Shown here: piece by piece, positions 5,481 to 21,022 of the stretch
Numbering within the stretch: position 1 is the first letter of the stretch
Layout: every line of letters starts with the position of its first letter
Source: Candidatus Fervidifonticultor sextus
GTDB lineage: Bacteria; Sysuimicrobiota; Sysuimicrobiia; Sysuimicrobiales; Humicultoraceae
Reading direction: 5' to 3'
Length of the DNA stretch: 40,302 nt
Assembly (NCBI GenBank): GCA_031459875.1
Contig: JAVKHQ010000024.1
Coordinates: 1 to 40,302 of the forward strand
Made by a program: the position numbers and the translations under genes
The notes under the pieces: model-generated
Databases searched by the model: none
What the model saw: the letters and a program-made list of their open reading frames with translations, nothing else
What the model was told of the DNA's origin: nothing

Positions 5481-5571
5481 GGAGAGGTGGCTGAGCCCGG
5501 TTGAAGGCGGCGGACTTGAAATCCGTTAGGGCGGCAAGCCCTCGTGGGTTCGAATCCCACCCTCTCCGCCA
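5481..5571 (+). tRNA. tRNA-Ser (anticodon TGA)
   Basis: GGAGAGG/CCTCTCC acceptor stem, anticodon arm GCGGA-CTTGAAA-TCCGT, long variable arm, GGTTCGAATCC, discriminator G, encoded CCA. Confidence 0.97.
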
Positions 5572-5663
5572 ATCCCCCGCCCCGACCGCCCGATTGCCGC
5601 GCTGGCGCAGGAAGTCTGACCCGCGCCCTCTTGGGGCACCCACTAGTCGGAGAGGAGCGCCCA

Positions 5664-6686
5664 TTGGGACCGCTCGCTGTTGTCACCTGCCCGCGCTGCG
5701 GCGTGGAAAACCCGGCTGCAGCACAGTTTTGCGGCCGCTGCTGGGGATACCTCCACGGGCCGACCTGCCCGAGCTGCGGCCGACAGTCCTCCCGGGCGGG
5801 CGCCAGGTATTGCGAGCACTGCGGGAAGGACCTGGCCGCCTCTGAGCCCGGGATGGCGCCGGAGGCACTTCCTGTGGGGGAGACCCATGCAGGCCCCGAG
5901 GCCGCGGCGCCGCTCGGGACGCCGATCGCTGAAGTCCCTACCGCCGAAGCCCCTGCCGCTGAAGTCCGTGCCGCTGAAGCCCAAGCTGCCGGAGAACCTC
6001 CTGTCGAGGAACCCGTCGCCGAGGAACCCGTCATCGAGAAGCCCGTTGCTGAGGGACCCCTCGTCGAAATCCCCTCCCTGGAGGAGGTCGTTCCGGCAGA
6101 ACCCGTCCCGGAGGCACAGCCTGCGCCTGCGGAGCCGCCCCCGCCGCATCAGCCCCAGAAGGAGGGGCGCCCCGCCTCCCGGCCGGGCAAGGCCGCACCG
6201 CCCGGTCTTCCCTCGTGGGCCGTCGTCGCCTTGTTCGTTGTGGCCATCGCCGGCGCGCTGGTCGTTCGTCAGCAAACCGACGTGCGGGGACGAGACGCCC
6301 TAGCGCCGCCCAGGGCTCCGGTTCCATCGCCCCAGGTTGGGGGCACGGACCAGGCGCAACCGGCCGTCGCGCCGTCGCCGGTTCCGGTCAGTCCCACGCC
6401 CACCCCGAAGCCGGCGGTGGGCATCCTCCAGATCGGCACCGCTCCGGCTGGCGCCCGCGTTGAGTTGGACGGCACCCCGGTCGGCATCACGCCGTTGACC
6501 CTGGCGGAGGTGAAGCCCGGGAGGCACGCGGTCAGGGTCAGCAGGGCCGGCTTCCGCTCGGTCAGCCGCGAGGTGGAGATCGCAGACGGCGAGAGGGTCA
6601 TCCTCGACCTCACCCTGACCCCGGCGCCCCCGCCGGCACCGCGGCGGGTCAGGGCGACGCCCCCACCGCCACCCCCGCCGCCGTGA
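5664..6686 (+). CDS. Double zinc-ribbon, single-TM, PEGA-domain protein
   Basis: CPRC/CGRC/CPSC/CEHC motifs, acidic EEPVA-type repeats, TM (WAVVALFVVAIAGALVV), PEGA (TAPAGARVELDG..VGITPL...G.H.VRVSRAGF); TTG 5664 chosen for its AGGAG RBS. Confidence 0.85.
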   Translation: MGPLAVVTCPRCGVENPAAAQFCGRCWGYLHGPTCPSCGRQSSRAGARYCEHCGKDLAASEPGMAPEALPVGETHAGPEAAAPLGTPIAEVPTAEAPAAEVRAAEAQAAGEPPVEEPVAEEPVIEKPVAEGPLVEIPSLEEVVPAEPVPEAQPAPAEPPPPHQPQKEGRPASRPGKAAPPGLPSWAVVALFVVAIAGALVVRQQTDVRGRDALAPPRAPVPSPQVGGTDQAQPAVAPSPVPVSPTPTPKPAVGILQIGTAPAGARVELDGTPVGITPLTLAEVKPGRHAVRVSRAGFRSVSREVEIADGERVILDLTLTPAPPPAPRRVRATPPPPPPPP

Positions 6687-6711
6687 TCGGGGATCCCCGG
6701 AGGCCAGCGCC

Positions 6712-7701
6712 GTGGCTCGTCGACGGGTGAGGGATCACAGCCGACCGGGCAGCGTGTGGGGGCTGGTCGTGCTGAGCGTGATCGCGGCGACCGCCTTGCA
6801 CAGCACGGGCGATGCGCTCGCCGGGCCTTCGGCCCAGGCGTACCTGGAGCAGGCCATCATCCTCTACAACAGGGGCGAATGCGGCAGGGCCATCGTGCTC
6901 CTCACCAAAGCAGTGGCGGCCGCGCCCAGGTACGTGCGGGCGTACTCCTGGATGGGATTCTGCTATGCGACGCTGGGTCGGACCCGCGAGGCGGTGGCGG
7001 CGTTCAACCGCGTGATCGCCCTGGCGCCCGGAAGCGAGGATGCCCGAATCGCCAGGCAGTGGATCGCCAGGCTGCAGCGGCCTGCGGTGCGGAGGCCGAC
7101 CCCGACTCCCCTGGCGGCTCCGTCTCCGGCCCCCACGCCGCCCGGCCTGGTTTATCTGGTGAGCCTCCCCGCCGCCGCCGGCGTGACGGTGGACAACCGT
7201 CCCCGGCAGATCCAGTTGTTCGGGGTGATCTACCGGCACGCGCTGGTCGAACGGCGCAACTGGTGGCGGGGGCGACGCTCGATCGAGCGGGAGTGGAGGG
7301 TCGTCTACAACCTCCAGAGGCGGTTCTCGCGATTCCGCGCGCTCGCGGGGGTGGAGGACGGGTCCCCCCCGGAGTTCACCGCGACCTTCGAAGTCCGCGC
7401 GGACGGCACCGCCCTGTTCGAGGGTCACCCCAAGCGGGCCGGGGACGTCCCCGACGCCCTGGACCTCGACGTTGCCGGTGTCCTGCAACTCGAGATGATC
7501 GTCCGCGGGTACGACCCGCTGCACACGCGGGATCTGTCGGTCGTGTGGGCGGACCCTGCGCTGGACGCGCGGCCGGCGGTCACGCAACCGGCGCTCCCGC
7601 CGTCGCCAGCCGGGCCGCCGTCGCCAGCCGGGCCGCCGGTGCCCCCACCGGCGTCACCGCCGCCTGCCTCCCCGCCGGCATCGCCGTCCCCTGGAGGCTA
7701 G
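6712..7701 (+). CDS. Secreted TPR + NPCBM/NEW2-like domain protein
   Basis: Signal peptide, TPRs (AYSWMGFCYATLG..REAVAAFNRVIALAP), NPCBM-like YNLQRRFSRFRALAGV..FEVRADG..LDVAGVLQLEM..VWADP, Pro-rich tail. Confidence 0.8.
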   Translation: MARRRVRDHSRPGSVWGLVVLSVIAATALHSTGDALAGPSAQAYLEQAIILYNRGECGRAIVLLTKAVAAAPRYVRAYSWMGFCYATLGRTREAVAAFNRVIALAPGSEDARIARQWIARLQRPAVRRPTPTPLAAPSPAPTPPGLVYLVSLPAAAGVTVDNRPRQIQLFGVIYRHALVERRNWWRGRRSIEREWRVVYNLQRRFSRFRALAGVEDGSPPEFTATFEVRADGTALFEGHPKRAGDVPDALDLDVAGVLQLEMIVRGYDPLHTRDLSVVWADPALDARPAVTQPALPPSPAGPPSPAGPPVPPPASPPPASPPASPSPGG

Positions 7702-8165: not shown

Positions 8166-9140
8166 ATGTCCGCCACGACAGTCCGTTCGGCCCGGGTGGA
8201 GGCGCTGGTCTCCGAGATCCGCGAGGTGACCGGGGGAGCGCCTGTCGTGGTGGCGTTTTCCGGGGGGCTCGACTCCTCGACCGTGGCCGCGCTGGCCAGA
8301 GAAGCCCTGGGCGCGCCCCACGTGCTCCTGGTTACCGTGAACATGGGCCAGTACGCCTACCGACGCGGCAACGAGATCGTATTGGAGATGGCCGAGCAGC
8401 TCGGGCTGCAGCAGCGCTGCCTGCTGGGACAGCAGGCGCAGCACGTCGTTCAGCGCAGCGGCCCCGCCTGCAACCGCTGCACCCGCCAGATCAAACTGGG
8501 GATGGTGAAGGCGGCAGCCCGCGGCCGGCTGGTGCTCACCGGGTCCAACCGCAGCGACACCTGGGGCCAGATGGGGGTCAAGCTCAGCAACGGCTACTAC
8601 TCCCCCCTGATCGACCTGGACAAGCCGCAGATCCGCGCCATCGCCGACGAACTCGGCCTGCGGATCCCGCGGATCGGCGAGCACTGGGGCCGCGAGGGCT
8701 GCACCCTCAAGCACCTGCTCAAGCCCCTGGTCAACCCCGACTACCACGGCCGCGCGGTGGCCGAGGCCAACGAGGTGCTGCTGCGTGTGCTGGCCGAAGC
8801 CCGGTTTGCCGCCGAGGTGGCCAACGTGAAGATCGTCGGCCCGCTGCGCCGGAACATCGGGCTGGTCAACGTCCGACCGCAGCCGCCCGAAGAGGTGAAG
8901 GCCGCCGTGTGGGGAGCCCTGCGCGAGCTGCCGGTCTTAGACGAGGTCCGCTTCGTGGAGGGGCCGGTCCGGCTGGTCGTCAGGATCGGGCCGGCACTGG
9001 CCGGCGATGCTGCCGGCCGGTACTGGATCGAGCACGGCCGCCTGGCGCCCGACTTCGCGCACCCGATCGAGGTGGAGTGGCACCCGAGCGCAGACGGCCG
9101 GCTCCATACCTTCCACGTGCTCGACGCCGTGGCGCTGTAG
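8166..9140 (+). CDS. PP-loop ATP pyrophosphatase, LarE/ExsB-like putative sulfur insertase
   Basis: VVVAFSGGLDSS PP-loop, ACNRC, TGSNRSD, SPLIDLDKPQIRAIADELGL, GCTLKH. Confidence 0.8.
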   Translation: MSATTVRSARVEALVSEIREVTGGAPVVVAFSGGLDSSTVAALAREALGAPHVLLVTVNMGQYAYRRGNEIVLEMAEQLGLQQRCLLGQQAQHVVQRSGPACNRCTRQIKLGMVKAAARGRLVLTGSNRSDTWGQMGVKLSNGYYSPLIDLDKPQIRAIADELGLRIPRIGEHWGREGCTLKHLLKPLVNPDYHGRAVAEANEVLLRVLAEARFAAEVANVKIVGPLRRNIGLVNVRPQPPEEVKAAVWGALRELPVLDEVRFVEGPVRLVVRIGPALAGDAAGRYWIEHGRLAPDFAHPIEVEWHPSADGRLHTFHVLDAVAL

Positions 9141-9141
9141 G

Positions 9142-10464
9142 ATGGCGCCGGTGGCTCCTGCGCGCCTGGTAGCCGGCAGGATTCCCGCCGCACCCGCCCG
9201 AACCTGCGAGCCGATGGTGGGACGTCGCATCGCCCTCTTCGTCACGCTCCTGGTCCTCCCGCTGGCGCCCGGCCGCGGCATCGGGGCGCCGTCGATCAGC
9301 ATTGAGTTCTGGACGATCTCGCTGCAGCCGTTCTTCACCGACTACATCAACGGGATGGTCGCGGCCTACGAGCGGGCCCATCCCGGGGTGAGGATCCGCT
9401 GGGTGGACGTCCAGTTCGGGGCCATCGAGCAAAAACTGCTGGCGGCGCTGGCCGGCGGGGTCGCCCCCGACGTCGTCAACCTGAATACCGAGATGACGGT
9501 CCGTTTGGCCGAGCGGAGCGCGCTGGTGGACATGGACGCCGCAGTCCCCGCAGCGGCCCGCGGCCGCTACTTCGACGGCCTGTGGCGCTCGACGCAGGTG
9601 CGGGGCCGGACCTACGGCATCCCCTGGTACGTCGTGCCCAACGTCATCGCCTACAACACGGCCCTCTACCGGCGGGCGGGCTTGAACCCCTCGCAGCCGC
9701 CCCAGACCGAAGAGGAGATGATCCAGCACGCCCGGACCATCAAAGACCGCGCCAGGGTCTACGGGTTCATGCCCAACGTGGACGGCGTGCGGATGCTGCA
9801 CCGGTTCCAGGAGAACGGTCTGCCGGTCCTCAGCCCCGACGGCAAGCGCGCGGTGTTCAACTCCCCCGCCCACGTGGAGTACCTGAGCCGCTATGTCGAC
9901 CTCTTCAGGCAGGACTACTTCCCCGAGGACACCCTCCGGCGCGGTTACCTGGGCGCCACCGAGCGGTACAGCGCCGGGCAGCTCGGCATGTTGATCACCG
10001 GCCCGCAGTTCCTCCTGCGCGTGAAGCGGGACAACCCGGAGGTGTACGCGCAGACGTTCGTGGCGCCGTATCCCAGGGGGAAGGGGAATACCCTCCATCT
10101 GGCGACCATGACGGTGGCCGTGCCGCGCGCCAGCCGGAACACGGAAGCCGCGGTGGACTTTGCGCTGTTCGTCACCAATGACGAGAATCAGCTGGCGTTC
10201 AGCCGGCAGGTGGTCGTCTTCCCCTCGACCCGCCAGGCCGCCAGCGACCCCTTCTTCCGGCAGGGCGGCGCCGCGCCCGAGGACGTCGCCCGCAAGGTAG
10301 CCGCGGCCGATCTCCCGTACGCCCGCGACCTCAGCGTGATCGTGCCCCACGCCGGAGACCTGTTCCGCGTGTTCCGCGAGGCGGTCGAGAGCGCGTTCTA
10401 CGGGAAGCGGACCCCCAGGGAGGCGCTGGACTGGGCGGTGGCACAGTGGAATGCGCGCCTGTGA
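9142..10464 (+). CDS. Carbohydrate ABC transporter substrate-binding protein (start may be 9214)
   Basis: IEFWTISLQPFF, PDVVNL, YGIPWY, IAYNTALYRRAGL; signal peptide from Met 9214. Confidence 0.92.
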   Translation: MAPVAPARLVAGRIPAAPARTCEPMVGRRIALFVTLLVLPLAPGRGIGAPSISIEFWTISLQPFFTDYINGMVAAYERAHPGVRIRWVDVQFGAIEQKLLAALAGGVAPDVVNLNTEMTVRLAERSALVDMDAAVPAAARGRYFDGLWRSTQVRGRTYGIPWYVVPNVIAYNTALYRRAGLNPSQPPQTEEEMIQHARTIKDRARVYGFMPNVDGVRMLHRFQENGLPVLSPDGKRAVFNSPAHVEYLSRYVDLFRQDYFPEDTLRRGYLGATERYSAGQLGMLITGPQFLLRVKRDNPEVYAQTFVAPYPRGKGNTLHLATMTVAVPRASRNTEAAVDFALFVTNDENQLAFSRQVVVFPSTRQAASDPFFRQGGAAPEDVARKVAAADLPYARDLSVIVPHAGDLFRVFREAVESAFYGKRTPREALDWAVAQWNARL

Positions 10465-12596
10465 GGGTCGCCCTGGCGCTGGCGCTCGCGGCCGCCGTGG
10501 CGCAGGCTGGGGCCGCGCCGGCGCGGGCCGGGCAGGATCGCTCCGTCGACCGGCTCCGACCGGCCCCGCGCGAGACCCGCATCATCCCTCTGCCGAAGTC
10601 GCTGCGCTGGCTGGACGGGGCGTTTGAGGTCACACCCGCCGGACGGATCCTCGTGGGCGCAGCGGCCCAGCCCGAAGACCTCTACGCCGCGCGCGACCTG
10701 AACCGGGAGCTGGCGGCCTGGGGCGCGCCCCCCCTGGAGGTCGTGCGCGCCGTCGCCGGCAGCGTGCCCGCCGGGACGATCGTCATCGGGGAACCCTCCC
10801 TCAACCCGCTGGCAGCGGACCTGCTGGCCCGCGACGGTCTGCGGGTCGCTCCCGGGGATCCGGGACCCGAGGGCTATGTGCTGCTCGTGACACCCGGGTA
10901 CGTCGTCGCCAGCGGCGCCGACCGCCGGGGAACCTACTACGCGGTTCAGACGCTGCGGCAACTGCTGGGCCGCGCCGACGGCCGCCTCGTCTTCCAGGGG
11001 GCCGCCATCCGGGACTGGCCCGACCACCGGATCCGCGCCGTCCACGTGCTGCTGGACGACGCCTCCGACGTCTTTCACACGGCCATGATCGAGCGCATTT
11101 TCAGCCGCTACAAGTTCAACATGCTGATTGCCCAGGCCGACTACGTGCGGTGGGACAGCGCGCGGAATCTCTGGCATCCCGGCGGCGCGACGAAGGCGCA
11201 GGCGGCGGCGGTCGTGGCGGCGGCCCGCGCCCACCTCATGGACCCGGTCCCGCTGATCCCTACCCTCGGCCACGTGGGCTGGCTGTTTGCCAACGACCAG
11301 AACCTCGACCTGCTGGAGATGCCGGCGGAGGCCGCCCCGGCGAGGTTCGTCTACCATCCGTTGAACCCGCGCGTCTACCAGGTCATCCTGCCGATCCTCG
11401 ACGAAGCGGTCGCGCTGTTCCGGCCGCGCTACCTCCACATCGGCCACGACGAGGTGCGCAACGTGGTCCCCTTCCCCTGGTCGGAGGAAGGCCGCCGCCT
11501 GGGCTTCGGCGAGCTCTTCGTCCGCGACGTCCTGCGGCTCTACGAGCACCTGGCATCGCGCGGCGTCGGCACGATGATGTGGGCCGACGTCCTGCTGTCC
11601 AGCGAGTACGTGCCCGAGTGGGCGCGGCTGCCGCGCGATATCCTGATGGTCGACTGGCAGTACCAGGCCGCGGCGCGCTATCCGAGCCTGGACCGGCTGC
11701 GGGCCCTGGGGTTCCCGGTGCTGGGGGCGACCTGGCACGGCTTTGCCAACAACGCGGCGCTGGCGCGCGACGCCCTGCGGGCGGGAGCCGCGGGGTTGGT
11801 CCGGACGACCTGGACGGGGTTCTTCGGAAACCGTGCGGCCCTCCAGTCCCAGTACCAGCAGCTCTACAGTTATCTCGTGGCGGCGGATCACTTCTGGCAT
11901 GCCGGCCGGGCCGACCCGTCCATGGACGAGATCGCGGCGGCCGCCCGCTTCCGGGCCGACTGGCACCAGGTGCGCGAGAACCCGCAGCCGGCCTCCGGCC
12001 GTCCCCTGGACCTGCGGGCGGTGGCGAACCGCAGCCACACGGACGACGGGTCTGGCTGGCTGGGGAAGGGACCCGCCTACGACCTCCGGGGTCTCCCGAT
12101 GGGGCTGCAGCGGTTCGGCGGGGTCCCCTTCCTGATCCTCGACCCCCTGGAGCGGGACGGTCGGAGCATCGTCATGCTGCGGGGGAGCCGCCCGCCGGCC
12201 TCCGACCTGCCCGACCGGGTGCGCATCGGCGCCGGGTTCGCCGCCGCCGGGCTGTGTTTCCTCCACGCGCTCCCGTACCCCGCGTCGCAGTTCGGGCAGG
12301 TGGTGGCCACCTACCGGGTGCGGTTCGCAGACGACGGCGTCGCGGCCATCCCGGTCCGCTACCGGCAGAACATCGGCACCTGGCTGGAAGACCCCGCCTC
12401 GATCGATCACGAGATCGTCTGGACCGGCCGGACGAGATCCGGCGTGCCTGTCCGGCTGTCCATGCTGTGCTGGACGAACCCCGACCCGCAGCGTCCCATC
12501 CTAACCATCGACCTGGAGGCCGCAGGCGCCGAGTCCGCCCCGGCGATCTTCGCCATCACGGCGCTGGAGCGGCCACGCGGGCCGGCACATCCGTGA
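10461..12596 (+). CDS. Secreted GH20 beta-N-acetylhexosaminidase with extra C-terminal domain
   Basis: GH20b domain (IIPLPK, PEGYVL, G.YYAVQTLRQL, IRDWP), catalytic HIGHDE, MMWAD, DWQY; GTGA overlap with the SBP stop. Confidence 0.9.
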   Translation: MRVALALALAAAVAQAGAAPARAGQDRSVDRLRPAPRETRIIPLPKSLRWLDGAFEVTPAGRILVGAAAQPEDLYAARDLNRELAAWGAPPLEVVRAVAGSVPAGTIVIGEPSLNPLAADLLARDGLRVAPGDPGPEGYVLLVTPGYVVASGADRRGTYYAVQTLRQLLGRADGRLVFQGAAIRDWPDHRIRAVHVLLDDASDVFHTAMIERIFSRYKFNMLIAQADYVRWDSARNLWHPGGATKAQAAAVVAAARAHLMDPVPLIPTLGHVGWLFANDQNLDLLEMPAEAAPARFVYHPLNPRVYQVILPILDEAVALFRPRYLHIGHDEVRNVVPFPWSEEGRRLGFGELFVRDVLRLYEHLASRGVGTMMWADVLLSSEYVPEWARLPRDILMVDWQYQAAARYPSLDRLRALGFPVLGATWHGFANNAALARDALRAGAAGLVRTTWTGFFGNRAALQSQYQQLYSYLVAADHFWHAGRADPSMDEIAAAARFRADWHQVRENPQPASGRPLDLRAVANRSHTDDGSGWLGKGPAYDLRGLPMGLQRFGGVPFLILDPLERDGRSIVMLRGSRPPASDLPDRVRIGAGFAAAGLCFLHALPYPASQFGQVVATYRVRFADDGVAAIPVRYRQNIGTWLEDPASIDHEIVWTGRTRSGVPVRLSMLCWTNPDPQRPILTIDLEAAGAESAPAIFAITALERPRGPAHP

Positions 12597-12615
12597 GGCG
12601 ATAGGAGGCAACCGC

Positions 12616-13092
12616 GTGAAAGACCGCGGCGTCGTGCTCGCCATCCACCTGCAGCCAGCCAGGGGGCAGCCGCCGCGCTCTGTCGGCCAGGCGCGGGCGC
12701 TGGTGGGCTTTGGCCTGGAGGGTGACTGCCACGGCAAGCACCGCCCCGGGAGTGCGCGTCAGGTGCTGCTGGTCGACCGCCGGACCCTGGAGGCGCTGGG
12801 CTTCGAGCCCGGCGCGCTGCGGGAGCAGCTGACCGTGGACCTGCCGGGTCTGGACAGCCTGCCGCCCGGGGTCCGCCTCACCGTCGGCGAGGCGGTCCTG
12901 GAGGTCACCGGTGCCTGCCACCCGTGCGAGGTGATCGGCAGGATCAACGCCGTGGCCGATCCGTATGCGCTCCGGGACGCCCTGGTGGGCCGGCGGGGCG
13001 TCCTGGCGAAGGTCATCGAGGTGGTGGGCGAGGGCCGCATCCGCCCTGGCGACCCGCTCGTGGTCCAGGCGCCTGCGCCGGCGTCGCCGTGA
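12616..13092 (+). CDS. MOSC domain protein
   Basis: GLEGD.H, RQVLL, PGALREQL, LEVTGACHPC, RRGVLAKV..G.IRPGD; AGGAGG RBS. Confidence 0.9.
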   Translation: MKDRGVVLAIHLQPARGQPPRSVGQARALVGFGLEGDCHGKHRPGSARQVLLVDRRTLEALGFEPGALREQLTVDLPGLDSLPPGVRLTVGEAVLEVTGACHPCEVIGRINAVADPYALRDALVGRRGVLAKVIEVVGEGRIRPGDPLVVQAPAPASP

Positions 13093-14105
13093 TGCACCTG
13101 GCCGGGCGCCTCGTCGTGGAGCAGGTCGAGAGCCAGGCGCTGCGGGGCAACCCGCTGGGCGACCCGCACGTCCGTCAGATTCCCGTCTACCTGCCACCCG
13201 GCTACGAGGCCGGCACCGCGGCCTACCCCACGATCTACTGGCTGCACGGCTTCACCGGCATCGGGCTGTCGGCCATCAACGCGAACCCGTGGGTGCCGTC
13301 GTTGCCCGAGTGCATGGACCGGGTCATCGCCGCCGGCGCGCCCCCGGCCATCCTGGTCATGGCCGATGGCTTCACGAAGTTCGGCGGCAGCCAGTACCTG
13401 AACTCCGAGGCCACCGGGCGCTACGAAGACTTCATCGTCGCTGACCTGGTGCCGTACATCGACGGCCGGTACCGGACCCTGGCCGACGCGGCGCACCGGG
13501 GGGTGGACGGCAAGTCCAGCGGCGGCTACGGCGCGCTGGTGCTGGCCATGCGCCACCCCGATGTGTTCGGCGCCGCGGCCGCGCACTCCGCCGACATGTA
13601 CTTCGAGGTCTGCTACATGCCCGACTTCTGGAAGTTCTGCACCATCGTGGCCAGGCACGGAGGGGTGGAGGGATTCCTGCGCGCCTTCCTGGAGATGCCC
13701 AAGAAGACCCCCGAGGCGCTGACCGCCGTCAACATCGCGGCCATGGCCATGGCGTATTCGCCCAATCCGAACCGGCCGCCGTACTTCTTCGACCTGCCCT
13801 TCGATCCCCACACCGGAGAACTCGACGAACAGACCTGGGCACGCTGGCTGGCCTGGGATCCGGTCCGGATGGCCGGGCGCCACGCGGACGCGCTGCGCGC
13901 GCTCCGGCTGCTCTACTTCGAGTGCGGCGCCCGTGACCAGTACCACCTCCATCTGGGCGCCCGGTTGCTCCACCAGCGGCTGGAGCGGCTGGGGATCCGG
14001 CATGAGTACGTCGAGTTCGACGACGACCACACGTCCATCAACTACCGCTACGTGGAATCCCTGCGCCGGCTCTGCCACGCGCTGGCCGGACCCCATGGCG
14101 GCTGA
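13092..14105 (+). CDS. Alpha/beta-hydrolase esterase (CE1/Fes-like)
   Basis: VYLPPGY, WLHGFTG, GKSSGG nucleophile elbow, CGARD, DDDH; TGATG overlap. Confidence 0.9.
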   Translation: MHLAGRLVVEQVESQALRGNPLGDPHVRQIPVYLPPGYEAGTAAYPTIYWLHGFTGIGLSAINANPWVPSLPECMDRVIAAGAPPAILVMADGFTKFGGSQYLNSEATGRYEDFIVADLVPYIDGRYRTLADAAHRGVDGKSSGGYGALVLAMRHPDVFGAAAAHSADMYFEVCYMPDFWKFCTIVARHGGVEGFLRAFLEMPKKTPEALTAVNIAAMAMAYSPNPNRPPYFFDLPFDPHTGELDEQTWARWLAWDPVRMAGRHADALRALRLLYFECGARDQYHLHLGARLLHQRLERLGIRHEYVEFDDDHTSINYRYVESLRRLCHALAGPHGG

Positions 14106-15033
14106 GGTCCCGGCCCCCGCCTCCGCCGCCCGCCCGGTCGGGCTGTTCGGGCTCTCCCGCCGGCAGTGGCAGACCACCCTGGTCGCCTACCTGTTCCTGC
14201 TCCCGGCGCTGCTGCTGCTGAGCCTGTTCACGTTCTACCCCGTGGCGTTTGGGACCGCGCTCAGCCTCTTCGACTACGATGTCATCTCCCCGCCCCGCTT
14301 CGTGGGGCTGGACCACTTCCGCGCGCTGTGGGCCGATCGGTACCTGTGGATCGCGCTGGCCAACTCGGTGAAATTCCTCCTGGTGGTCCCGGTGCTGCAG
14401 GCCTGCTCCATCGGCCTGGCGGTGGCCGTCAACCGGCCGCTGCGCGGCATCCGGTGGTTCCGCGCCGCCTACTACCTGCCGGTGGTGACGTCCATGGTCG
14501 TCGCGGGGCTCATGTGGCGCTGGCTGCTGGAGCAGGACGGGGTCGTCAACTTCGCCCTGCTGCGCCTCGGGGTGCTCGAGCGGCCGGTGGCCTGGCTGGG
14601 GCACCCGGACCTGGCGCTGTACGCCGTGATGTTCGTGACGCTGTGGAAGGGCCTGGGCTACTACATGGTGATCTACCTGGCCGGGCTCCAGGCCATCCCA
14701 CCGGAGGTGGAGGAGGCGGCGGTCACCGACGGCGCCTCGCGCTGGCAGGTCTTCCGGTGGGTCACGATGCCCTTGCTGCGGCCCTCGATCCTGCTGGCGT
14801 CCACGATCTCGGCGATCGCGGCCCTCAAGGTCTTCGAGGAGATCTACGTGATGACCGGCGGCGGGCCCATGTTCCGGACCTACACGATGTTCTTCTACAT
14901 CTTCGACAAGGGCTTCCAGCAGCTGGACCTGGGCTACGCCGCAGCCATCGCGGTCGTGCTGGCCGCGGCCGTGATGGCGCTGTCGGCGGTCAACTTCCGG
15001 ATCTTCCGGCAGGGAGGGTGGACGTATGACTGA
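14095..15033 (+). CDS. Carbohydrate ABC transporter permease 1
   Basis: YLFLLPA, IYLAGLQAIP.E..EAA..DGAS EAA motif. Confidence 0.95.
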   Translation: MAAEVPAPASAARPVGLFGLSRRQWQTTLVAYLFLLPALLLLSLFTFYPVAFGTALSLFDYDVISPPRFVGLDHFRALWADRYLWIALANSVKFLLVVPVLQACSIGLAVAVNRPLRGIRWFRAAYYLPVVTSMVVAGLMWRWLLEQDGVVNFALLRLGVLERPVAWLGHPDLALYAVMFVTLWKGLGYYMVIYLAGLQAIPPEVEEAAVTDGASRWQVFRWVTMPLLRPSILLASTISAIAALKVFEEIYVMTGGGPMFRTYTMFFYIFDKGFQQLDLGYAAAIAVVLAAAVMALSAVNFRIFRQGGWTYD

Positions 15034-15868
15034 GTCCCGACTGCCGGGTCGTCCAGGCGCCGCGGCAGTAGCCGCCCGCTACGCGATGCTGGTGGCACTG
15101 GCCGCCTTCACCACCTTCCCGCTGCTGTGGCTGGCGTCGGTGGCGCTGCGCACCACCGGCGCCGTCTTCGGCTTCCCCCCGTCGCTCGTGCCGTGGCCGC
15201 CATCGCTGGCCAACTTCGCAGCCGTGTGGCACACGATGCCCCTGCCCCGGTTCTTCCTCAACACCCTGCTCCTGTGCGGCGCCGCCGTGGCCCTGAACCT
15301 GATCTTCTGCTCGATGGCCGCCTACCCGCTGGCCCGGATGGAGTTTCCCGGCCGCCGGCTAGTCTTCGCGCTGCTGCTGTCCACCCTGATGCTGCCCGGC
15401 CACGTGGGCCTGATCGTGAACTTCGTGACGCTGCTGCGGCTGCGTCTGGTCGACACCTATGCCGGCGTGCTGCTGCCCGGCGCGGTGTCCGTCTTCGGGA
15501 TCTTCCTGCTCCGGCAGGCCTTCCTGACCGTGCCGCACGACCTGGAGGACGCGGCGCGCATCGACGGCGCCTCCGAGTGGACCATCTGGTGGCGGGTGAT
15601 GGTGCCGGTGATTTCACCGTCGCTGGCGGCGCTGGCCCTGTTCGAGTTCGTCGCAGTCTGGAACTCGTTCCTGTGGCCGCTCATCGTGCTGAAGTCGCCG
15701 GAGAAGTACCCGCTGGCCGTCGGATTGCTTTACCTGTCGGGCCTGTTCGCCCACAACACCCGGGCGGTGGCAGCCGGCGCGGTATTGATGACGCTGCCGA
15801 TCCTGGTCGTGTTCCTGTTCACCCAGCGCTACTTCGTGCGCGGGCTGACGCTGGGGGCGGTCCGGTGA
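15026..15868 (+). CDS. Carbohydrate ABC transporter permease 2
   Basis: DLEDAARIDGASE, WNSFLWPLI, QRYFVRGL..GAV. Confidence 0.95.
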   Translation: MTESRLPGRPGAAAVAARYAMLVALAAFTTFPLLWLASVALRTTGAVFGFPPSLVPWPPSLANFAAVWHTMPLPRFFLNTLLLCGAAVALNLIFCSMAAYPLARMEFPGRRLVFALLLSTLMLPGHVGLIVNFVTLLRLRLVDTYAGVLLPGAVSVFGIFLLRQAFLTVPHDLEDAARIDGASEWTIWWRVMVPVISPSLAALALFEFVAVWNSFLWPLIVLKSPEKYPLAVGLLYLSGLFAHNTRAVAAGAVLMTLPILVVFLFTQRYFVRGLTLGAVR

Positions 15869-15896
15869 GGCCCCCGCAGTCGTCGCGGGGGCGGCG

Positions 15897-17405
15897 ATGA
15901 GGCGGGTGCTCTTCATCCCGCTCGACGATCGGCCGGCCACGCGCGTGACGGTGCTGGACCTGCTGCCGCTGCTCGGCGCCGCGTGGGACACACCGCCGAA
16001 GGACCTGCTCGGCCACCGCCGGAGGCCGGCAGACCTGGACGCCCTCTTCCGCTGGGCGGAGCGCGAGGCCGAAAGCGCCGACGCTCTGATCGCCCCCGCC
16101 GAGGTGTTCGTCCACGGCGGGCTGGTCCCCTCGCGGCTCTCCGTGGATCCCCTGGAGGTGCTGTGGCGACGGCTCGACCGCCTGGTGCGGCTGGCCGGCC
16201 GGGTGCCCACGTATCTGTCCGCGACCAACCCCCGCATCCCGGCCGGCGGCGCCGACGAGGAGCCGGGCTACTGGGCCGAGTACGGCGACCGGCTGCGCGC
16301 GTACTCGACGCACCTGGACGCCGGGGCGCTGGCGGGCGACGACGCGCGCGTGCGCCGCGCGCTGGAGGCCCTCGACGGCGTGCCGGCCGCCGTCGTCGAC
16401 GACTTCCTCCGCCGCCGACGCCGGCAGCTGCTGGTCAACCTGGAACTCATCCTGCTGGCAGCCCAGAGCCGCCTGGCCGCGCTGCTGATCGGTCAGGACG
16501 ACGCCGAACCCCACGGATTCCCGCGCGCCGATCTCGCAGTACTCCAACGGTTCCGCGAACGCTGCGGGGCCGGCCGTGCCTGCGTCTCGGTCGGCGCCGA
16601 CGAACTGGGAGCCCGGTTGCTGGCGCGGCTGGCGGTGGACGCCTCCGGCCGCTCGCCGCGCGTGGCCGTCCGGTACACCTTCCCGGAGGCCAGGCGCAGC
16701 GTGCCGCGCTACGAGCCGTTCCCCCTCGAGGACACGGTGGCCGGCCACCTGGAGGCCGCGGGGTGCACCGTCGCGGCCGGCGACGCCGAGATCCTGCTGT
16801 GGGTGCACAACTTCGCCGGCGCCCAGCAGCGGGAATCGCGGGACCAGCGCGGCGCGCCGCCGGCGCCGGTCCGGACGGTGGCCGCCGCCCTGGCCGAGGC
16901 GGCTTCGCGGGGCATCGTGTGCGGGTGCGCCGACGTGCGGTTCGCCAACGGCGCCGACGACGCGCTGGTGCGGTCGCTGCTGGCGCGGGAGGACCTGGCG
17001 GGCCTGGCCGGGTACGCGGGGTGGAACACCTGCAGCAACAGCCTGGGTACCGTCCTGGCACAGGTGATCCTGGCCTACGGCGCGCAGTCCCACCTGGGTG
17101 AGGCGCGCTTCCGGCAGATCCGCCGGCGCTACCTGACCCGGCGGCTGCTCGACGACTGGGGGTACCAGACGGTCGTGCGGCCCTACCTGGCCGACGAGGT
17201 GGTGGGGGCGTTGGGCGCCGATGCGACCCGCCTGGGGCCGGCCGCGCCGGCGGTGCGCGAGGTGGCATTGCGCCGGTTCCACGAGGAGATCCTGCCGCCG
17301 GTGGAGCGGGCCCTCGGGCCGGCCGGCTTTGCGGACCTGGCGTTTCCCTGGGACCGTCTGTTCGAAGTCGAGGTCCGGTTTTCCGATGAGCCGCAGGGCA
17401 TGTGA
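15897..17405 (+). CDS. DUF4127 family protein
   Basis: FIPLDDRP, GGLVPSR, GQDD, GADE, ADV.FANGAD, YAGWNT.SNSLGT, LLDDWGYQ, FPWDRLFE. Confidence 0.88.
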   Translation: MRRVLFIPLDDRPATRVTVLDLLPLLGAAWDTPPKDLLGHRRRPADLDALFRWAEREAESADALIAPAEVFVHGGLVPSRLSVDPLEVLWRRLDRLVRLAGRVPTYLSATNPRIPAGGADEEPGYWAEYGDRLRAYSTHLDAGALAGDDARVRRALEALDGVPAAVVDDFLRRRRRQLLVNLELILLAAQSRLAALLIGQDDAEPHGFPRADLAVLQRFRERCGAGRACVSVGADELGARLLARLAVDASGRSPRVAVRYTFPEARRSVPRYEPFPLEDTVAGHLEAAGCTVAAGDAEILLWVHNFAGAQQRESRDQRGAPPAPVRTVAAALAEAASRGIVCGCADVRFANGADDALVRSLLAREDLAGLAGYAGWNTCSNSLGTVLAQVILAYGAQSHLGEARFRQIRRRYLTRRLLDDWGYQTVVRPYLADEVVGALGADATRLGPAAPAVREVALRRFHEEILPPVERALGPAGFADLAFPWDRLFEVEVRFSDEPQGM

Positions 17406-18750
17406 CGTGGCGGTGATCGGCGGCGGGCCGGCGGGCAGCGTGGCCGCCATCGCCGCGGCACGGGAGGGTGCGCGCGTCGTGCTCGTCGAACGCTACGGCT
17501 TCCTGGGCGGAACGCTGACGGTCGCCATGGTGGCGCCCATGATGGGGTTCCACGCCGGGAGCCAGCAGGTGGTCCGCGGCATCCCCGGCGAGATCGTGGA
17601 CCGGCTGGTGGCCATCGGCGCCTCGCCCGGGCACGTGCCCGATCCGATTGACTTCTGCGATTCGGTGACCCCGTTCGACTACGAGGGACTCAAGCGCGTC
17701 CTGTTGGAGCTGGCCGTGGAGGCCGGCGTCGAGTTGTGGCTCCACACCGTCTTCCTGGACGCCCGCGTCGCTGCCGGTACCGTCCAGGCCGTCCGCGTCT
17801 GGCAGAAGGACGGGGAGAAGGAGATCCGTGCGCCGGTGTTCGTGGACGCCTCCGGCGACGGCGACCTCTCGGTGGCCGCCGGCGCGCAGGCCGAGATCGG
17901 ACGGCCCGAAGACCACCGCCCGCAGCCGATGACCCTGATGATCCGCCTGGGCGGCGTGGACTGGGACGCCGTGATGGACTACATCGGGCGCCACCCCGAC
18001 GAGATCCAGCACGGGCAGGGGATCCACGGGCGCATCGAGGTCTCGTGGTTGAAGGGGCTGCCCACCCGCGGGTTTGCCGGATTCGGCGCGCTCGTGCGCG
18101 AGGCCCGCCAGCGCGGGGAGTGGACGGTTCCCCGCGACCGGCTGCTGGTCTTCGAGGGCGTGCGGGCCGGAGAAGCCGTCGTGAACACCACGCGGGTGCT
18201 GGGCCGCCTGGGCATCCGGGGCGACGACCTGGCCCGTGCCGAGGTCGAGGGCCGGCAGCAGGCCTATCAGGTGGTGGACCTGCTGCGCCGCCGCGTGCCG
18301 GGATTCGCCGGGGCCTACCTGCTCGAGACGCCGGCCCAGATCGGCGTGCGCGAGACGCGGCGCATCGTGGGAGACTACGTGCTGACCGCCGAGGACATCC
18401 TGGCCGCCCGGAAGTTCGACGACGCCATCGCGTGCGGCGCCTACCCCATCGACATCCACGACCCGGCCTCGGACCGGCTGGTGACCCGCCGCCTGCCGCC
18501 GGGCGAGTACTACACGATCCCGTACCGATGCCTGCTCCCCCGCGGAGGGGAGAACTGGCTGACGGCCGGGCGCTGCATCTCGGCCACCCACGAGGCGTTT
18601 GCGGCCTTCCGGGTCTCGGCCATCGTCATGGCCATCGCGCAGGCGGCCGGGACAGCGGCGGCGATGGCGGCGCGGGCCGGGATCCGACCCCGGGCGATCG
18701 ACCCGCAAGTCCTCAGGCAGGTCCTGCGGGAGCGGGGCGCGTTCGTGTAG
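17386..18750 (+). CDS. FAD-dependent oxidoreductase (PF12831-type)
   Basis: DVAVIGGGPAG, VDASGDGD, GVRETRRI.G.YVLT, YPIDIH, IPYRCLLP, AGRCISATHEA. Confidence 0.92.
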   Translation: MSRRACDVAVIGGGPAGSVAAIAAAREGARVVLVERYGFLGGTLTVAMVAPMMGFHAGSQQVVRGIPGEIVDRLVAIGASPGHVPDPIDFCDSVTPFDYEGLKRVLLELAVEAGVELWLHTVFLDARVAAGTVQAVRVWQKDGEKEIRAPVFVDASGDGDLSVAAGAQAEIGRPEDHRPQPMTLMIRLGGVDWDAVMDYIGRHPDEIQHGQGIHGRIEVSWLKGLPTRGFAGFGALVREARQRGEWTVPRDRLLVFEGVRAGEAVVNTTRVLGRLGIRGDDLARAEVEGRQQAYQVVDLLRRRVPGFAGAYLLETPAQIGVRETRRIVGDYVLTAEDILAARKFDDAIACGAYPIDIHDPASDRLVTRRLPPGEYYTIPYRCLLPRGGENWLTAGRCISATHEAFAAFRVSAIVMAIAQAAGTAAAMAARAGIRPRAIDPQVLRQVLRERGAFV

Positions 18751-18792
18751 GTCCGCGTCGTCGGCACCACCGCGCGGACGACAGGGGTCTCA

Positions 18793-19080
18793 CTATTCGC
18801 CCATGAACCGCAGGAAGATGGGGACCAGGATCGCGATGACGACGAGGGTGAGGATCCAGTAGAACTGCCGATCCATTCGGGACACAAGCTCTCTCCCAAG
18901 CCCTCCAATCTGCTGGTCAATCCTTCCGGTGAGCCTGGACTCGACGCCGTCGATCCTGCTGCTGAGCCTTGCGTCGAGGTGATCGAGGCGAGCCTCAATG
19001 CTCCCCAGGCGCTCGCTGATCTGCTCGTAGGCGCCTTCGAGGTGCGCCATGCGGACCTCGAGCGGATTGACGGCCATCAC
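18793..19080 (-). CDS. Small coiled-coil protein with C-terminal TM anchor (DUF1640/Bdr-like)
   Basis: Heptad-like IEARLDHLDARL..RIDGVESRL..RID followed by WILTLVVIAILVPIFL; GAGGAG RBS; extended -10 TGATAGAAT at 19104-19096. Confidence 0.8.
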   Translation of the reverse strand: MMAVNPLEVRMAHLEGAYEQISERLGSIEARLDHLDARLSSRIDGVESRLTGRIDQQIGGLGRELVSRMDRQFYWILTLVVIAILVPIFLRFMGE

Positions 19081-19302
19081 AGACTCCTCAGGGGAATTCT
19101 ATCATGCGGCGGCGCCGTCACTTCCCGTCTATCTCTCGGCTGGCTGGGCCTCGTTTTCAACCCCCCATGCTGGCGGGTGCGGCAGGGGGCCCGCCACCGC
19201 TCGTTGCCCCGGGCAGGCCCGCGGCAACCCCCAGGAGCCGGCCGCGGTGCCCACGAAGTGTGCTCCCCGTGCGCCTGCATCGTGTCCCGTCGGTGATCGG
19301 CG

Positions 19303-19974
19303 ATGGCTGATCCCCTCTCCCGGCGCGGCCTGTTGATCGTCAGCCTCCCGCGCAACGATGTGGCCCTGGCGCGGGCTGCGGCCGCTGCCGGCGCGGACCT
19401 GCTCAAGGTGCACGTTAACGTCCGCCACCGGGCGTCTGGCACGCGGTTTGGGTCCCTCGACGACGAGGAGGACGCGATCGCCCGGGTCCTGGAGGTCGGG
19501 CTCCCGACGGGCCTGGTGCCCGGCGAAGAAGCGATGGTGACCCCGGACCAGGTCCCGCGCCTGCGGCGGTTCGCCTTTCTCGACGCGTTCGTGACCCGGC
19601 TTCCGCTCTTCCTCTACGACGTGGGCGTCCCGGTGATCCCGGCGATTCCGCACGACTATCCGGCCGAAGCGCTGGGCTCGCTGGGCGCGCTGCCCGGCGA
19701 GTGGTTGGAGGCGGCGCTGGTCCCGCCGGAGGGGTACGGTCTGGATCCGGTCGCCGACGACCTGGTGGCGCTGGCGCGCCTGGGGGCGATCTCCCGTCGC
19801 CGGCTCATTGTGCCGACCCAGCGGCGGATCCGGCCCGAGGACGTGAGCCGCTACTTCGCCATCCCGCAGGTCTGGGCGGTCATGATCGGCGCCGTGGTGG
19901 CCGGACGGACGGCCCGCGGCCTCGGCCGGGCCACCGAGGCGTTCCGCCGCGCCCTGGAGGCGCTGGCGCCGTGA
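19303..19974 (+). CDS. Uncharacterised ribulose-phosphate-binding TIM-barrel protein (NanE-like fold)
   Basis: LIVSLP, AAAAAGAD.LKVH, LIVPTQ, C-terminal AVMIGAVV phosphate-binding-like strand. Confidence 0.6.
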   Translation: MADPLSRRGLLIVSLPRNDVALARAAAAAGADLLKVHVNVRHRASGTRFGSLDDEEDAIARVLEVGLPTGLVPGEEAMVTPDQVPRLRRFAFLDAFVTRLPLFLYDVGVPVIPAIPHDYPAEALGSLGALPGEWLEAALVPPEGYGLDPVADDLVALARLGAISRRRLIVPTQRRIRPEDVSRYFAIPQVWAVMIGAVVAGRTARGLGRATEAFRRALEALAP

Positions 19975-20014
19975 CGCCGCCGGTGTCCGGGGGTTGCGAG
20001 GCGCAGGCAGCGCC

Positions 20015-21022
20015 GTGATCGTCGAAGCGCGCGCGCCCACCCGCATCGACCTGGCCGGCGGCACCCTTGACATCCATCCTTTGTACCTGCTGGAGGATGA
20101 CGCCTGGACGGTCAACGCCGCGGTGGAGATCCCGGTGCGCGTGCGCCTGACTCCGGCGCGCTTGGGGTTCGTTGTCGCGTCGAGGGATCTCGGCCACCGC
20201 GTCGCGGCGGAGTCGGTGGCCCACCTGCCCACCGGCGGGCCGCTGGACCTGGCCTGCCGGGCCCTCAGGGCCGCCGCGCCCCATCGGGGGCTCGTGGCCA
20301 CGCTCGAATCCTCTGCGCCGCCGGGCTCGGGCCTGGGCGCGTCGTCGGCGCTGCTGGTGGCGCTGCTGGCGGCCCTCGACCGCGCCTCGCGCCGGCGCCG
20401 CAGCCTCGCCGACCTCGTCGCGCTGGCCTGGCGCCTGGAGGCGCAGTCGCTGCGGACGCTCACGGGCCGGCAGGACTACCTGGCCGCCGTGCGCGGCGGC
20501 GTGAATGCCATCCGCTTTGGGGTCGACGGCGACCATGTCGAGCCGCTGCTGCCCGCGGCGTCTGCCCGCCGGGCCCTGCAGGGACGCCTCGTCGTCGCCT
20601 ACACCGGCCGACCGCATACCTCCGGCCTGACCAACTGGGGCGTCGTCCGCGCCTACCTGGACGGGGTGCCCGGCACCGTGAACCGGTTGCGGCACATCGC
20701 CCGGGTCGCCCGTGAGATGCGGGACGCCCTGCGCGCCCGCGACTTGGATGCCCTGGGCGACCTGGTCGCGCAGGAGTGGGCGTACCGGCGCGAACTGGCC
20801 TCGGGCGTCTCCACCCCGGTGATCGAGCGGGCACTGGCCGTGGCACGCCGGCACGGCGGGCTCGCCGGCAAGGCCTGCGGCGCCGGCGGCGGCGGCTGCG
20901 TGCTCATCGTCGTCCGCGCGGGCCACAAGGGGCGGTGCGAGGCCGGCCTGCGCAATGCCGGCTTCCCCGTGCTGCGGGTGCGGATCGCCCCGCGGGGGCT
21001 GCGGGTGCGGGCTGTGGGGTAG
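20015..21022 (+). CDS. GHMP-family sugar kinase (HddA-like)
   Basis: APTRIDLAGGTLD, PPGSGLGASS, GRQD, KACGAGGGGC. Confidence 0.9.
   Translation: MIVEARAPTRIDLAGGTLDIHPLYLLEDDAWTVNAAVEIPVRVRLTPARLGFVVASRDLGHRVAAESVAHLPTGGPLDLACRALRAAAPHRGLVATLESSAPPGSGLGASSALLVALLAALDRASRRRRSLADLVALAWRLEAQSLRTLTGRQDYLAAVRGGVNAIRFGVDGDHVEPLLPAASARRALQGRLVVAYTGRPHTSGLTNWGVVRAYLDGVPGTVNRLRHIARVAREMRDALRARDLDALGDLVAQEWAYRRELASGVSTPVIERALAVARRHGGLAGKACGAGGGGCVLIVVRAGHKGRCEAGLRNAGFPVLRVRIAPRGLRVRAVG

Follow-up and report, generated by a model that had tools for sequence, protein, structure and literature searches.

Relation to Known Salvage Systems

Gram-positive nan clusters, which serve sialic acid and N-acetylmannosamine (ManNAc), are made up of NanE, a ROK-type NanK, an RpiR regulator, and an ATP-binding cassette (ABC) importer. 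The locus treated here occupies positions 8166 to 21022 of a stretch of 40,302 nucleotides from Candidatus Fervidifonticultor sextus (contig JAVKHQ010000024.1 of assembly GCA_031459875.1), the whole of which is called the window in what follows. It has the layout of known salvage operons, and its two central enzymes, a DUF4127 protein and a PF12831 flavoprotein, have no described function in the literature searched. Tentatively, and with a likelihood set a little below even, the core of this operon salvages fragments of the CsaB-pyruvylated secondary wall polymer of ManNAc and N-acetylglucosamine (GlcNAc), with DUF4127 predicted to free ManNAc.

Regarding the nan clusters, the DUF4127 loci of Bacillota and of other members of the same order also carry NanE, ROK, and RpiR together with a CUT1 importer; the window locus differs in that it has none of these three, and its ManNAc would come from DUF4127 instead of a sialate lyase. 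As for peptidoglycan recycling (NagZ, AnmK, MurQ, NagA), the common plan would be cleavage outside the cell, import, removal of an acid substituent (at C3 in recycling), and phosphorylation, and nagZ is a neighbour of the operon in Deinococcus as well as in several order-mates. Unlike in that pathway, the orphan enzymes of the window are unrelated to the products of murQ-anmK, nagZ, and nagA, which the same genome encodes on contig C45, so that this operon would be a second route; N-acetylmuramic acid is handled by that separate murQ-anmK locus.

A further likeness is with xanthan degradation. The xanthan locus of Paenarthrobacter encodes a PL8 lyase, a kinase, ManA, an ABC importer, and a flavin adenine dinucleotide (FAD)-dependent oxidoreductase, which two supplementary tables list as 42- and 60-fold over-abundant, and xanthan lyase frees 4,6-pyruvyl-mannose (PMC12772297); Microbacterium has a similar unit, in which the authors proposed xutH for cleaving pyruvylated mannose (bioRxiv 10.64898/2026.04.20.719765). 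Both types of locus combine an ABC importer, a FAD-dependent oxidoreductase, and a kinase for a glycan capped by a 4,6-pyruvylated manno-sugar, with roles that are predicted in the two cases. The enzymatic basis of depyruvylation was stated to be unresolved in a 2026 study (PMC13750104). For polymer breakdown, the operon points to two candidate enzymes together with a transporter and one defined disaccharide; DUF4127 also occurs in two control genomes, those of Thermus thermophilus and Deinococcus radiodurans, organisms where deletions are routine.

Genes of the Locus and Their Conservation

The features of the locus are listed below.

8166..9140, + strand: PP-loop ATPase, LarE-like, with a profile match far under the LarE cut-off; passenger
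9214 (or 9142)..10464, + strand: CUT1 sugar-binding protein (SBP) of the MsBP/ChiE-like clade, PF01547; core
10461..12596, + strand: exported GH20 protein, GH20b plus catalytic barrel, H-x-G-H-D-E intact; optional member
12616..13092, + strand: stand-alone MOSC domain; family-restricted accessory or passenger
13092..14105, + strand: CE1-like esterase, nucleophile motif G-K-S-S-G; family-restricted accessory
14095..15033, + strand: ABC permease of the MalF/UgpA type; core
15026..15868, + strand: ABC permease of the MalG/UgpE type; core
15897..17405, + strand: DUF4127, cytoplasmic form, PF13552 at E 1e-108; core
17386..18750, + strand: PF12831 flavoprotein of the barrel-linked type, E 3e-124; core, lost in places
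18793..19080, - strand: 95-aa coiled-coil open reading frame (ORF); recent insert, outside the system
19303..19974, + strand: orphan TIM barrel, ribulose-phosphate-binding by its model, partner of the flavoprotein, with no Pfam family
20015..21022, + strand: GHMP kinase of the HddA/fucokinase (C1-kinase) type; family-restricted accessory

Conservation was surveyed in 41 genomes of the order, the window's own included (24 belong to its family; f2 and f4 are other families of the order), and in a sample of 301 Bacillota genomes, which gave 77 DUF4127 match rows and of which 40 regions were examined. DUF4127 is present in 34 of the 41 order genomes and in 22 of the 24 from the family, and the window protein is 96% identical to that of Ca. 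Fervidifonticultor octavus (Ca. Sysuimicrobiota according to the tree labels). The same genes recur at greater distance: a Deinococcus locus has the order nagZ / SBP (48%)-GH20-permeases-FAD protein-DUF4127, a Bacillota locus (G265) NanE-RpiR...ROK-FAD protein-GHL10-DUF4127-SBP (51%)-GH20 (40%)-permeases, and the order-mates G033 and G036 NanE-SBP-permeases-FAD protein-DUF4127-ROK. SBP orthologues that are 48-70% identical adjoin DUF4127 in other families, in Deinococcus, and in G265, and GH20 is also present in the Deinococcus locus L067 and the Bacillota locus L096. The 40 Bacillota regions contain permeases in 10 cases, the flavoprotein in 9, NanE and ROK in 5 each, the barrel and the SBP clade of the window in 4 each, and GH20 in 1; family f4 and two f2 genera have the SBP, the permeases, and DUF4127 without flavoprotein or barrel. 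Because this same core recurs in three phyla, the system is limited to the SBP, the two permeases, DUF4127, and the flavoprotein, with GH20 optional; so delimited, it is real and conserved in Sysuimicrobiota, Deinococcus, and Bacillota.

This outcome modifies the preliminary description, which had joined all eleven plus-strand genes in one salvage pathway for a decorated amino-sugar polymer and had expected them to be conserved together elsewhere. Salvage of N-acetylhexosamine (HexNAc) based on DUF4127 and the flavoprotein stood, and the cell's own wall polymer is a plausible source in view of the ties to NanE, ROK, NagZ, and csaB; joint conservation was found for the core alone, and the PP-loop, MOSC, esterase, and GHMP kinase genes fell outside it. 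None of these four (for the esterase, the family of the window's protein) occurs in the 40 Bacillota DUF4127 regions, and even within the family, of 14 loci spanning PP-loop to DUF4127, only 7 have MOSC, 8 have GH20, and 11 have the esterase. MOSC is probably a passenger, and the CE1-like esterase could, from its sequence, remove O-acetyl groups; an esterase of a different kind flanks DUF4127 in Priestia.

The PP-loop gene was considered as a member and rejected, for it occurs irrespective of DUF4127 and adjoins the locus only within the family: it is found in 37 of the 41 order genomes, including 6 of the 7 that lack DUF4127, sits on another contig in 11/11 DUF4127-positive genomes outside the family, and is absent from the DUF4127 locus in all 8 out-of-family genomes with upstream DNA examined. 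Its product does not reach LarE identity (TIGR00268, 48.8 bits against a cut-off of 150). As a separate observation, this ATPase is 65-95% identical order-wide, falls under every NCBIfam cut-off, and has C-x-x-C and G-C motifs, as a conserved housekeeping enzyme.

As for the GHMP kinase, it follows the barrel in 20 of the 24 family genomes and is absent from all five f2 genomes, two of which carry the barrel. It is nearest to heptose-7-phosphate and fucose kinases, which act at C1, and does not reach HddA identity (NCBIfam, 85.7 bits against a cut-off of 600). A kinase of this anomeric type is a poor match to a 6-phosphate epimerase step, so the earlier proposal of phosphorylation followed by epimerisation within the locus was not borne out, and the barrel is likewise not established as an epimerase.

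Regarding the layout, all eleven genes were found where they had been placed, with matching families, and the tight junctions were confirmed: SBP/GH20, -4 (GTGA); GH20/MOSC, +19; MOSC/esterase, -1 (TGATG); esterase/permease, -11; permease/permease, -8; permease/DUF4127, +28; DUF4127/flavoprotein, -20. Between the PP-loop gene and the SBP gene lies a gap of 1 nt with an SBP start at 9142, or of 73 nt with a start at 9214, near which the alignments of relatives begin. Close packing extends past the GHMP kinase into an MFS gene and then queG (tRNA modification), with a GTGA overlap at 22224, so that junctions alone cannot delimit the pathway. No ABC ATPase is encoded within the locus; three MalK-type ATPases are all found elsewhere in the genome, and with these as candidates in trans the CUT1 importer (SBP_bac_1, two permeases, and an ATPase) is complete. 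The antisense ORF at 18793-19080 has no match in any relative's locus and no Pfam family over cut-off, its one paralogue being on contig C1 of the same genome; it is regarded as a recent insert because relatives lack it and have flavoprotein and barrel close together (18-129 nt apart in 9 of 12 Sysuimicrobiota loci with both genes). A promoter scan gave 2 sites where 0.5 would be expected, including one at 19076-19105, immediately 5' of the barrel, and a terminator scan remained at chance level; neither was used. The one sequencing run from the same study that was examined for RNA evidence yielded short, partly foreign contigs only, none bearing on co-transcription.

The Sugar and the Polymer

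The identity of the sugar is suggested by the neighbours of DUF4127: NanE, ROK, and RpiR flank it in Caldicoprobacter, Priestia, Carnobacterium, and two order-mates, and 33 of the 34 DUF4127-positive relatives carry NanE, the barrel, or both (NanE only, 11; barrel only, 7; both, 15; the one with neither is a 78% complete genome). By comparison, 5 of the 7 DUF4127-negative relatives have neither NanE nor barrel. There is no nanA in the locus, and its best match in the genome scores 137 bits against a cut-off of 382. The simplest reading is thus that the ManNAc does not derive from sialic acid, and salvage of a ManNAc-containing wall glycan is probable. In the genome of the window, NanE is encoded on contig C10 and ROK on C22, neither in the locus; this nanE is part of a second ABC sugar-uptake operon (L068:8076-11002), in which an unannotated 303-aa gene stands between nanE and the binding protein.

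As for the polymer, csaB is present over its cut-off in the same genome, next to DUF5693, and the genome further has a tagA/wecG gene and encodes three SLH proteins. CsaB pyruvylates the beta-ManNAc of ManNAc-beta1,4-GlcNAc repeats, to which SLH domains bind, and both the synthesis of this pyruvylated ManNAc polymer by TagA and CsaB and its binding by SLH have been described (PMC6801904); in diderm Terrabacteria, CsaB and SLH are commonly found together (bioRxiv 10.1101/2021.05.31.446380). Among the sampled Bacillota, DUF4127 occurs in 46 of 248 csaB-positive genomes compared with 1 of 52 csaB-negative ones (Fisher p 0.0013, kinship ignored, centre genome excluded). On balance, the pyruvylated polymer has about an even chance of being the substrate. 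It should be noted that DUF5693 lies directly 5' of csaB (L069:10561-12537) and is also found in a Bacillota csaB-tagA-LCP operon (L100:5792-7747), which makes it a candidate protein of wall-polymer synthesis.

Sugar-Binding Protein and GH20

The best PDB match of the SBP is MsBP (6WPM, E 1.5e-60; the next match has 8.8e-24), and with a 19-residue offset the positions of D173 and F248 are kept; those of the anion-linked R125 and R228 are Asn and Leu in the window protein. MsBP from Synechococcus MITS9220 binds zinc and phosphate-modified sugars, not plain sugars, and the ChiE-like clade is predicted to bind chitobiose (PMC8938411). Since R125 and R228 are not kept, a preference for anionic sugars cannot simply be read across from MsBP, and its transfer to the window protein was dropped. 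A nearby R-G motif is present in 25/25 orthologues of at least 48% identity and in 0/3 weaker ones. The genomic setting differs too, MsBP (6WPM/6WPN) being encoded by an orphan gene beside mreBCD (PMC8938411) and the SBP of the window by a gene in a full catabolic operon.

The GH20 protein has an intact catalytic D-E pair and its top PDB matches are of the lacto-N-biosidase type (8HVB and 9FYL; E 3e-15 and 2e-13). Its orthologues carry Ser in 15/15 cases where HexNAcases have a blocking Arg, in a sequence alignment placed by the motif D-x-x-R-H, which we take to mark that position. The protein is thus like the lacto-N-biosidases and N-acetyllactosaminidases in keeping the D-E pair and apparently missing the blocking Arg, and unlike them in being very distant and in having ManNAc, not Gal, as the predicted sugar in subsite -2. 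Enzymes of the lacto-N-biosidase type are described without the Arg that closes this subsite (PMC11776370). Because of these matches and of the apparent lack of the Arg, GH20 may release a whole disaccharide repeat rather than terminal HexNAc; of the terminal beta-HexNAc activity first assigned to it, the family and the catalytic pair were upheld, its resemblance being greater to disaccharide-releasing enzymes.

The DUF4127 Protein

Invariant residues in 131 DUF4127 sequences are R80, R113, R174, D202, D235, N351, N377, T378, N381, and G384; there are thus three invariant arginines, together with five near-invariant ones, invariant acids, and an N-T-x-x-N motif, and no recognisable cofactor motif among the conserved residues. 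The predicted structure (predicted local distance difference test, pLDDT, 97) has two alpha/beta domains. Searches gave no match to PDB sequences at E 1, template-modelling scores of 0.2 or less with Foldseek for the whole model, and DUF4127 clusters only in the ESM Atlas; the best match to a solved structure (Z 9.3 over 98 residues, root-mean-square deviation 2.7) covers single common domains only. The 13 longest of 150 representative matches include fusions to PF12831 (5), ROK (3), and GrpB (1, P0006).

DUF4127 exists in a plain and an exported form. Among 40 Bacillota copies, 35 could be parsed and 25 of these have a signal-like N-terminus by a crude hydrophobicity check judged by eye, the other 10 being plain. 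All ten plain copies are in importer or catabolic operons, and 24 of the 25 signal-bearing ones have none of the probed catabolic neighbours. Exported copies are spread over several branches (FastTree) and have as neighbours SLH proteins (L054, L102, L116), acyltransferases, and polysaccharide deacetylases; one faces DUF5693-tagA-LCP-csaB (L100). The window protein is of the plain form. Exported forms free of a cofactor motif fit hydrolysis at the wall, and for this reason DUF4127 is predicted to be a hydrolase.

A Carnobacterium operon bears on the reaction. It reads nanE-HAD phosphatase-DUF4127-PTS IIC-rpiR (PTS, phosphotransferase system), with no ROK kinase or named glycosidase; the PTS would supply a 6'-phospho-disaccharide that needs cleavage before NanE, and DUF4127 is therefore the only splitting candidate there. 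This favours, not decisively, cleavage of beta-ManNAc by DUF4127 over hydrolysis of a ketal. DUF4127 as the glycosidase that frees ManNAc, a beta-N-acetylmannosaminidase, is accordingly put forward as a possibility that falls somewhat short of even chances; the literature searched has no mention of "DUF4127" or "N-acetylmannosaminidase".

Some observations on this family are added here. In family f2 (L075, L076, L077, L080), a single open frame gives two separate matches to the DUF4127 profile, at 1-128 and about 175-488, so that residues about 129-174 are replaced or missing. A double GNAT acetyltransferase repeatedly adjoins DUF4127 (L072-L074, L081, L109), often with NagZ. At L042:11590-14785 (- strand), genes that we take, from their motifs, to be 2-oxoacid:ferredoxin oxidoreductase-like lie antisense between DUF4127 and the barrel and replace the flavoprotein.

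The Flavoprotein and the TIM Barrel

The predicted structure of the barrel (pLDDT 96) has TrpA/BX1 and KGPDC/HPS as neighbours at Z 17-19, after re-scoring of the Foldseek top 1000; on this model, it is a ribulose-phosphate-binding TIM barrel. Homology to NanE was considered and rejected as unproven (no PF04131 match; hhalign probability 2.5, E 0.019); NanE is not among the structure rows listed for the barrel, and one Atlas cluster carries an automatic NanE-like name. NanE and barrel never share a locus in the 40 Bacillota regions (5 with NanE, 4 with the barrel).

Few Bacillota carry the barrel (9 of 301). In 8/8 barrel loci examined, out of 10 copies, there is a flavoprotein that shares 40-45% identity with that of the window, and 4 of these 8 are without DUF4127, 3 being hydantoinase-type clusters. 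In a tree of the flavoprotein, a quick version with long-branch warnings, nine sequences from barrel-free DUF4127 loci, eight of which have NanE or ROK near, form one supported clade, with the window protein and the other barrel-linked ones outside it. This split implies two flavoprotein types, and the barrel goes with one type instead of simply replacing NanE. Literature searched for PF12831 holds nothing on its function in bacteria of this kind. By analogy with the xanthan loci, the flavoprotein is a candidate for removing the pyruvate ketal, on evidence that is suggestive only: PF12831 lies within 10 kb of 4 of 16 PL8 genes (the family of G173, one of the two scanned with Golvesin domains), and in L131 it adjoins a PL8 lyase with Golvesin domains. 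Separately, the loci L137, L139, and L140 combine barrel, PF12831, a stand-alone hydantoinase A-like gene of 713-727 aa, and unannotated ORFs, possibly as a separate undescribed pathway.

Proposed Pathway and Alternatives

In the proposed pathway, exported GH20 would cut at GlcNAc and take (pyruvyl-)ManNAc-beta1,4-GlcNAc off the non-reducing end, and this disaccharide would be the cargo of the ABC system, an importer by sequence that would work with a shared MalK-type ATPase. DUF4127 would then split the beta-ManNAc bond as a beta-N-acetylmannosaminidase, and the flavoprotein and barrel might take off the pyruvate ketal or bring about some other conversion of the capped sugar. Kinase and epimerase steps, for which genes are present elsewhere in the genome, would pass ManNAc and GlcNAc to the NanE/NagA route; as a family-specific side route, the GHMP kinase may give a 1-phosphate shortcut to nucleotide sugars. 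A wider reading is rather improbable: that the operon represents the missing turnover pathway of the pyruvylated, SLH-anchoring polymer across Terrabacteria, DUF4127 being a new glycosidase family of beta-N-acetylmannosaminidases with cytoplasmic and exported members and an unmatched two-domain fold, and PF12831 removing 4,6-pyruvate ketals from manno-sugars in wall polymer and xanthan.

Several points weigh against the proposed pathway. The csaB test of Bacillota ignores kinship, and 202 of the 248 csaB-positive genomes have no DUF4127 match, nor was DUF4127 found in the csaB-positive controls Synechococcus elongatus and Thermotoga maritima; conversely, three DUF4127 carriers reached through their loci have no csaB over cut-off, and csaB is present in 39 of the 41 order genomes whatever their DUF4127 status. 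NanE appears in just 5 of the 40 Bacillota loci, the SBP lacks the two anion-linked arginines, and the fold searches with the DUF4127 model led to no known glycosidase. Members of the broad PF12831 family also occur next to organic-acid transporters, the window's copy falls outside the NanE-linked clade, and flavoprotein and barrel occur without DUF4127 in the hydantoinase-type loci L137, L139, and L140, which have no clear sugar link. The four PL8 loci with PF12831 are two sister pairs, and only 4 of 16; the xanthan systems themselves differ in having mannose, not ManNAc, a PL8 lyase, not GH20, and no DUF named, and the flavoproteins are likened by description, not by family.

With the same substrate, the roles might be swapped, so that DUF4127 is a pyruvate-ketal hydrolase, its arginines holding the carboxylate and its aspartates protonating the ketal, and flavoprotein and barrel break or epimerise ManNAc via a 3-keto intermediate. 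The invariant and near-invariant arginines and the invariant acids of DUF4127 suit this role, exported copies by csaB and SLH genes could free SLH-bound proteins via depyruvylation, and 3-keto-gulonate-6-phosphate decarboxylase is among the structural neighbours of the barrel. Moreover, L052, L056, and L090, which have no visible flavoprotein, have DUF4127 flanked by a Gfo/Idh/MocA dehydrogenase and an AP_endonuc_2 barrel, which we take to be parts of redox glycoside cleavage. Against this, PTS IIC loci (Carnobacterium, L060) keep DUF4127 and no flavoprotein, and a 4,6-ketal would block their phosphorylation at C6; the portions consulted of two xanthan papers, where pyruvyl-mannose must be processed, name no DUF protein either. 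The swap is considered unlikely.

The other two alternatives change the substrate or divide the system. Rather unlikely is the scavenging, from other cells or debris, of a non-pyruvylated ManNAc or HexNAc glycan (teichoic-acid linkage unit, capsule, or chitin-like oligomer), with the csaB link as a lineage effect: some DUF4127 operons are carried by plasmids or by csaB-negative genomes, the annotation of the SBP clade is ChiE-like with chitobiose predicted (PMC8938411), and in B. timonensis (L098) DUF4127 has a chitinase as its neighbour, but retention in 22 of the 24 family genomes resembles housekeeping more than patchy use, exported copies face wall-biosynthesis genes, and NanE is unnecessary for chitin. 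It is very unlikely that two unrelated modules were joined in the family, one for ManNAc (SBP, permeases, and DUF4127) and one for some different small molecule (flavoprotein and barrel), which GHMP kinase, MFS, and queG genes merely follow. The position of the window flavoprotein in the tree, the loci of f4 and f2 that do without flavoprotein and barrel, and the occurrence of these two with hydantoinase A, RraA-like aldolase, and amidohydrolase genes would agree with such a joining; nevertheless, they adjoin DUF4127 on distinct branches (B. timonensis L098, L107-L109, and the window's own order), and barrel carriers have DUF4127 in 7 of 8 random Bacillota, compared with 40 of 292 others.

Other Features of the Window

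Upstream of the locus, positions 5544-7701 encode exported zinc-ribbon/PEGA and TPR/NPCBM proteins, and several members of the family have the TPR gene in this same place. Finally, at 2455-4042 (- strand), an SBP_bac_5 oligopeptide-binding protein is encoded in two overlapping frames, matching its profile at 2-99 and 134-349, as a frameshift or a split gene.

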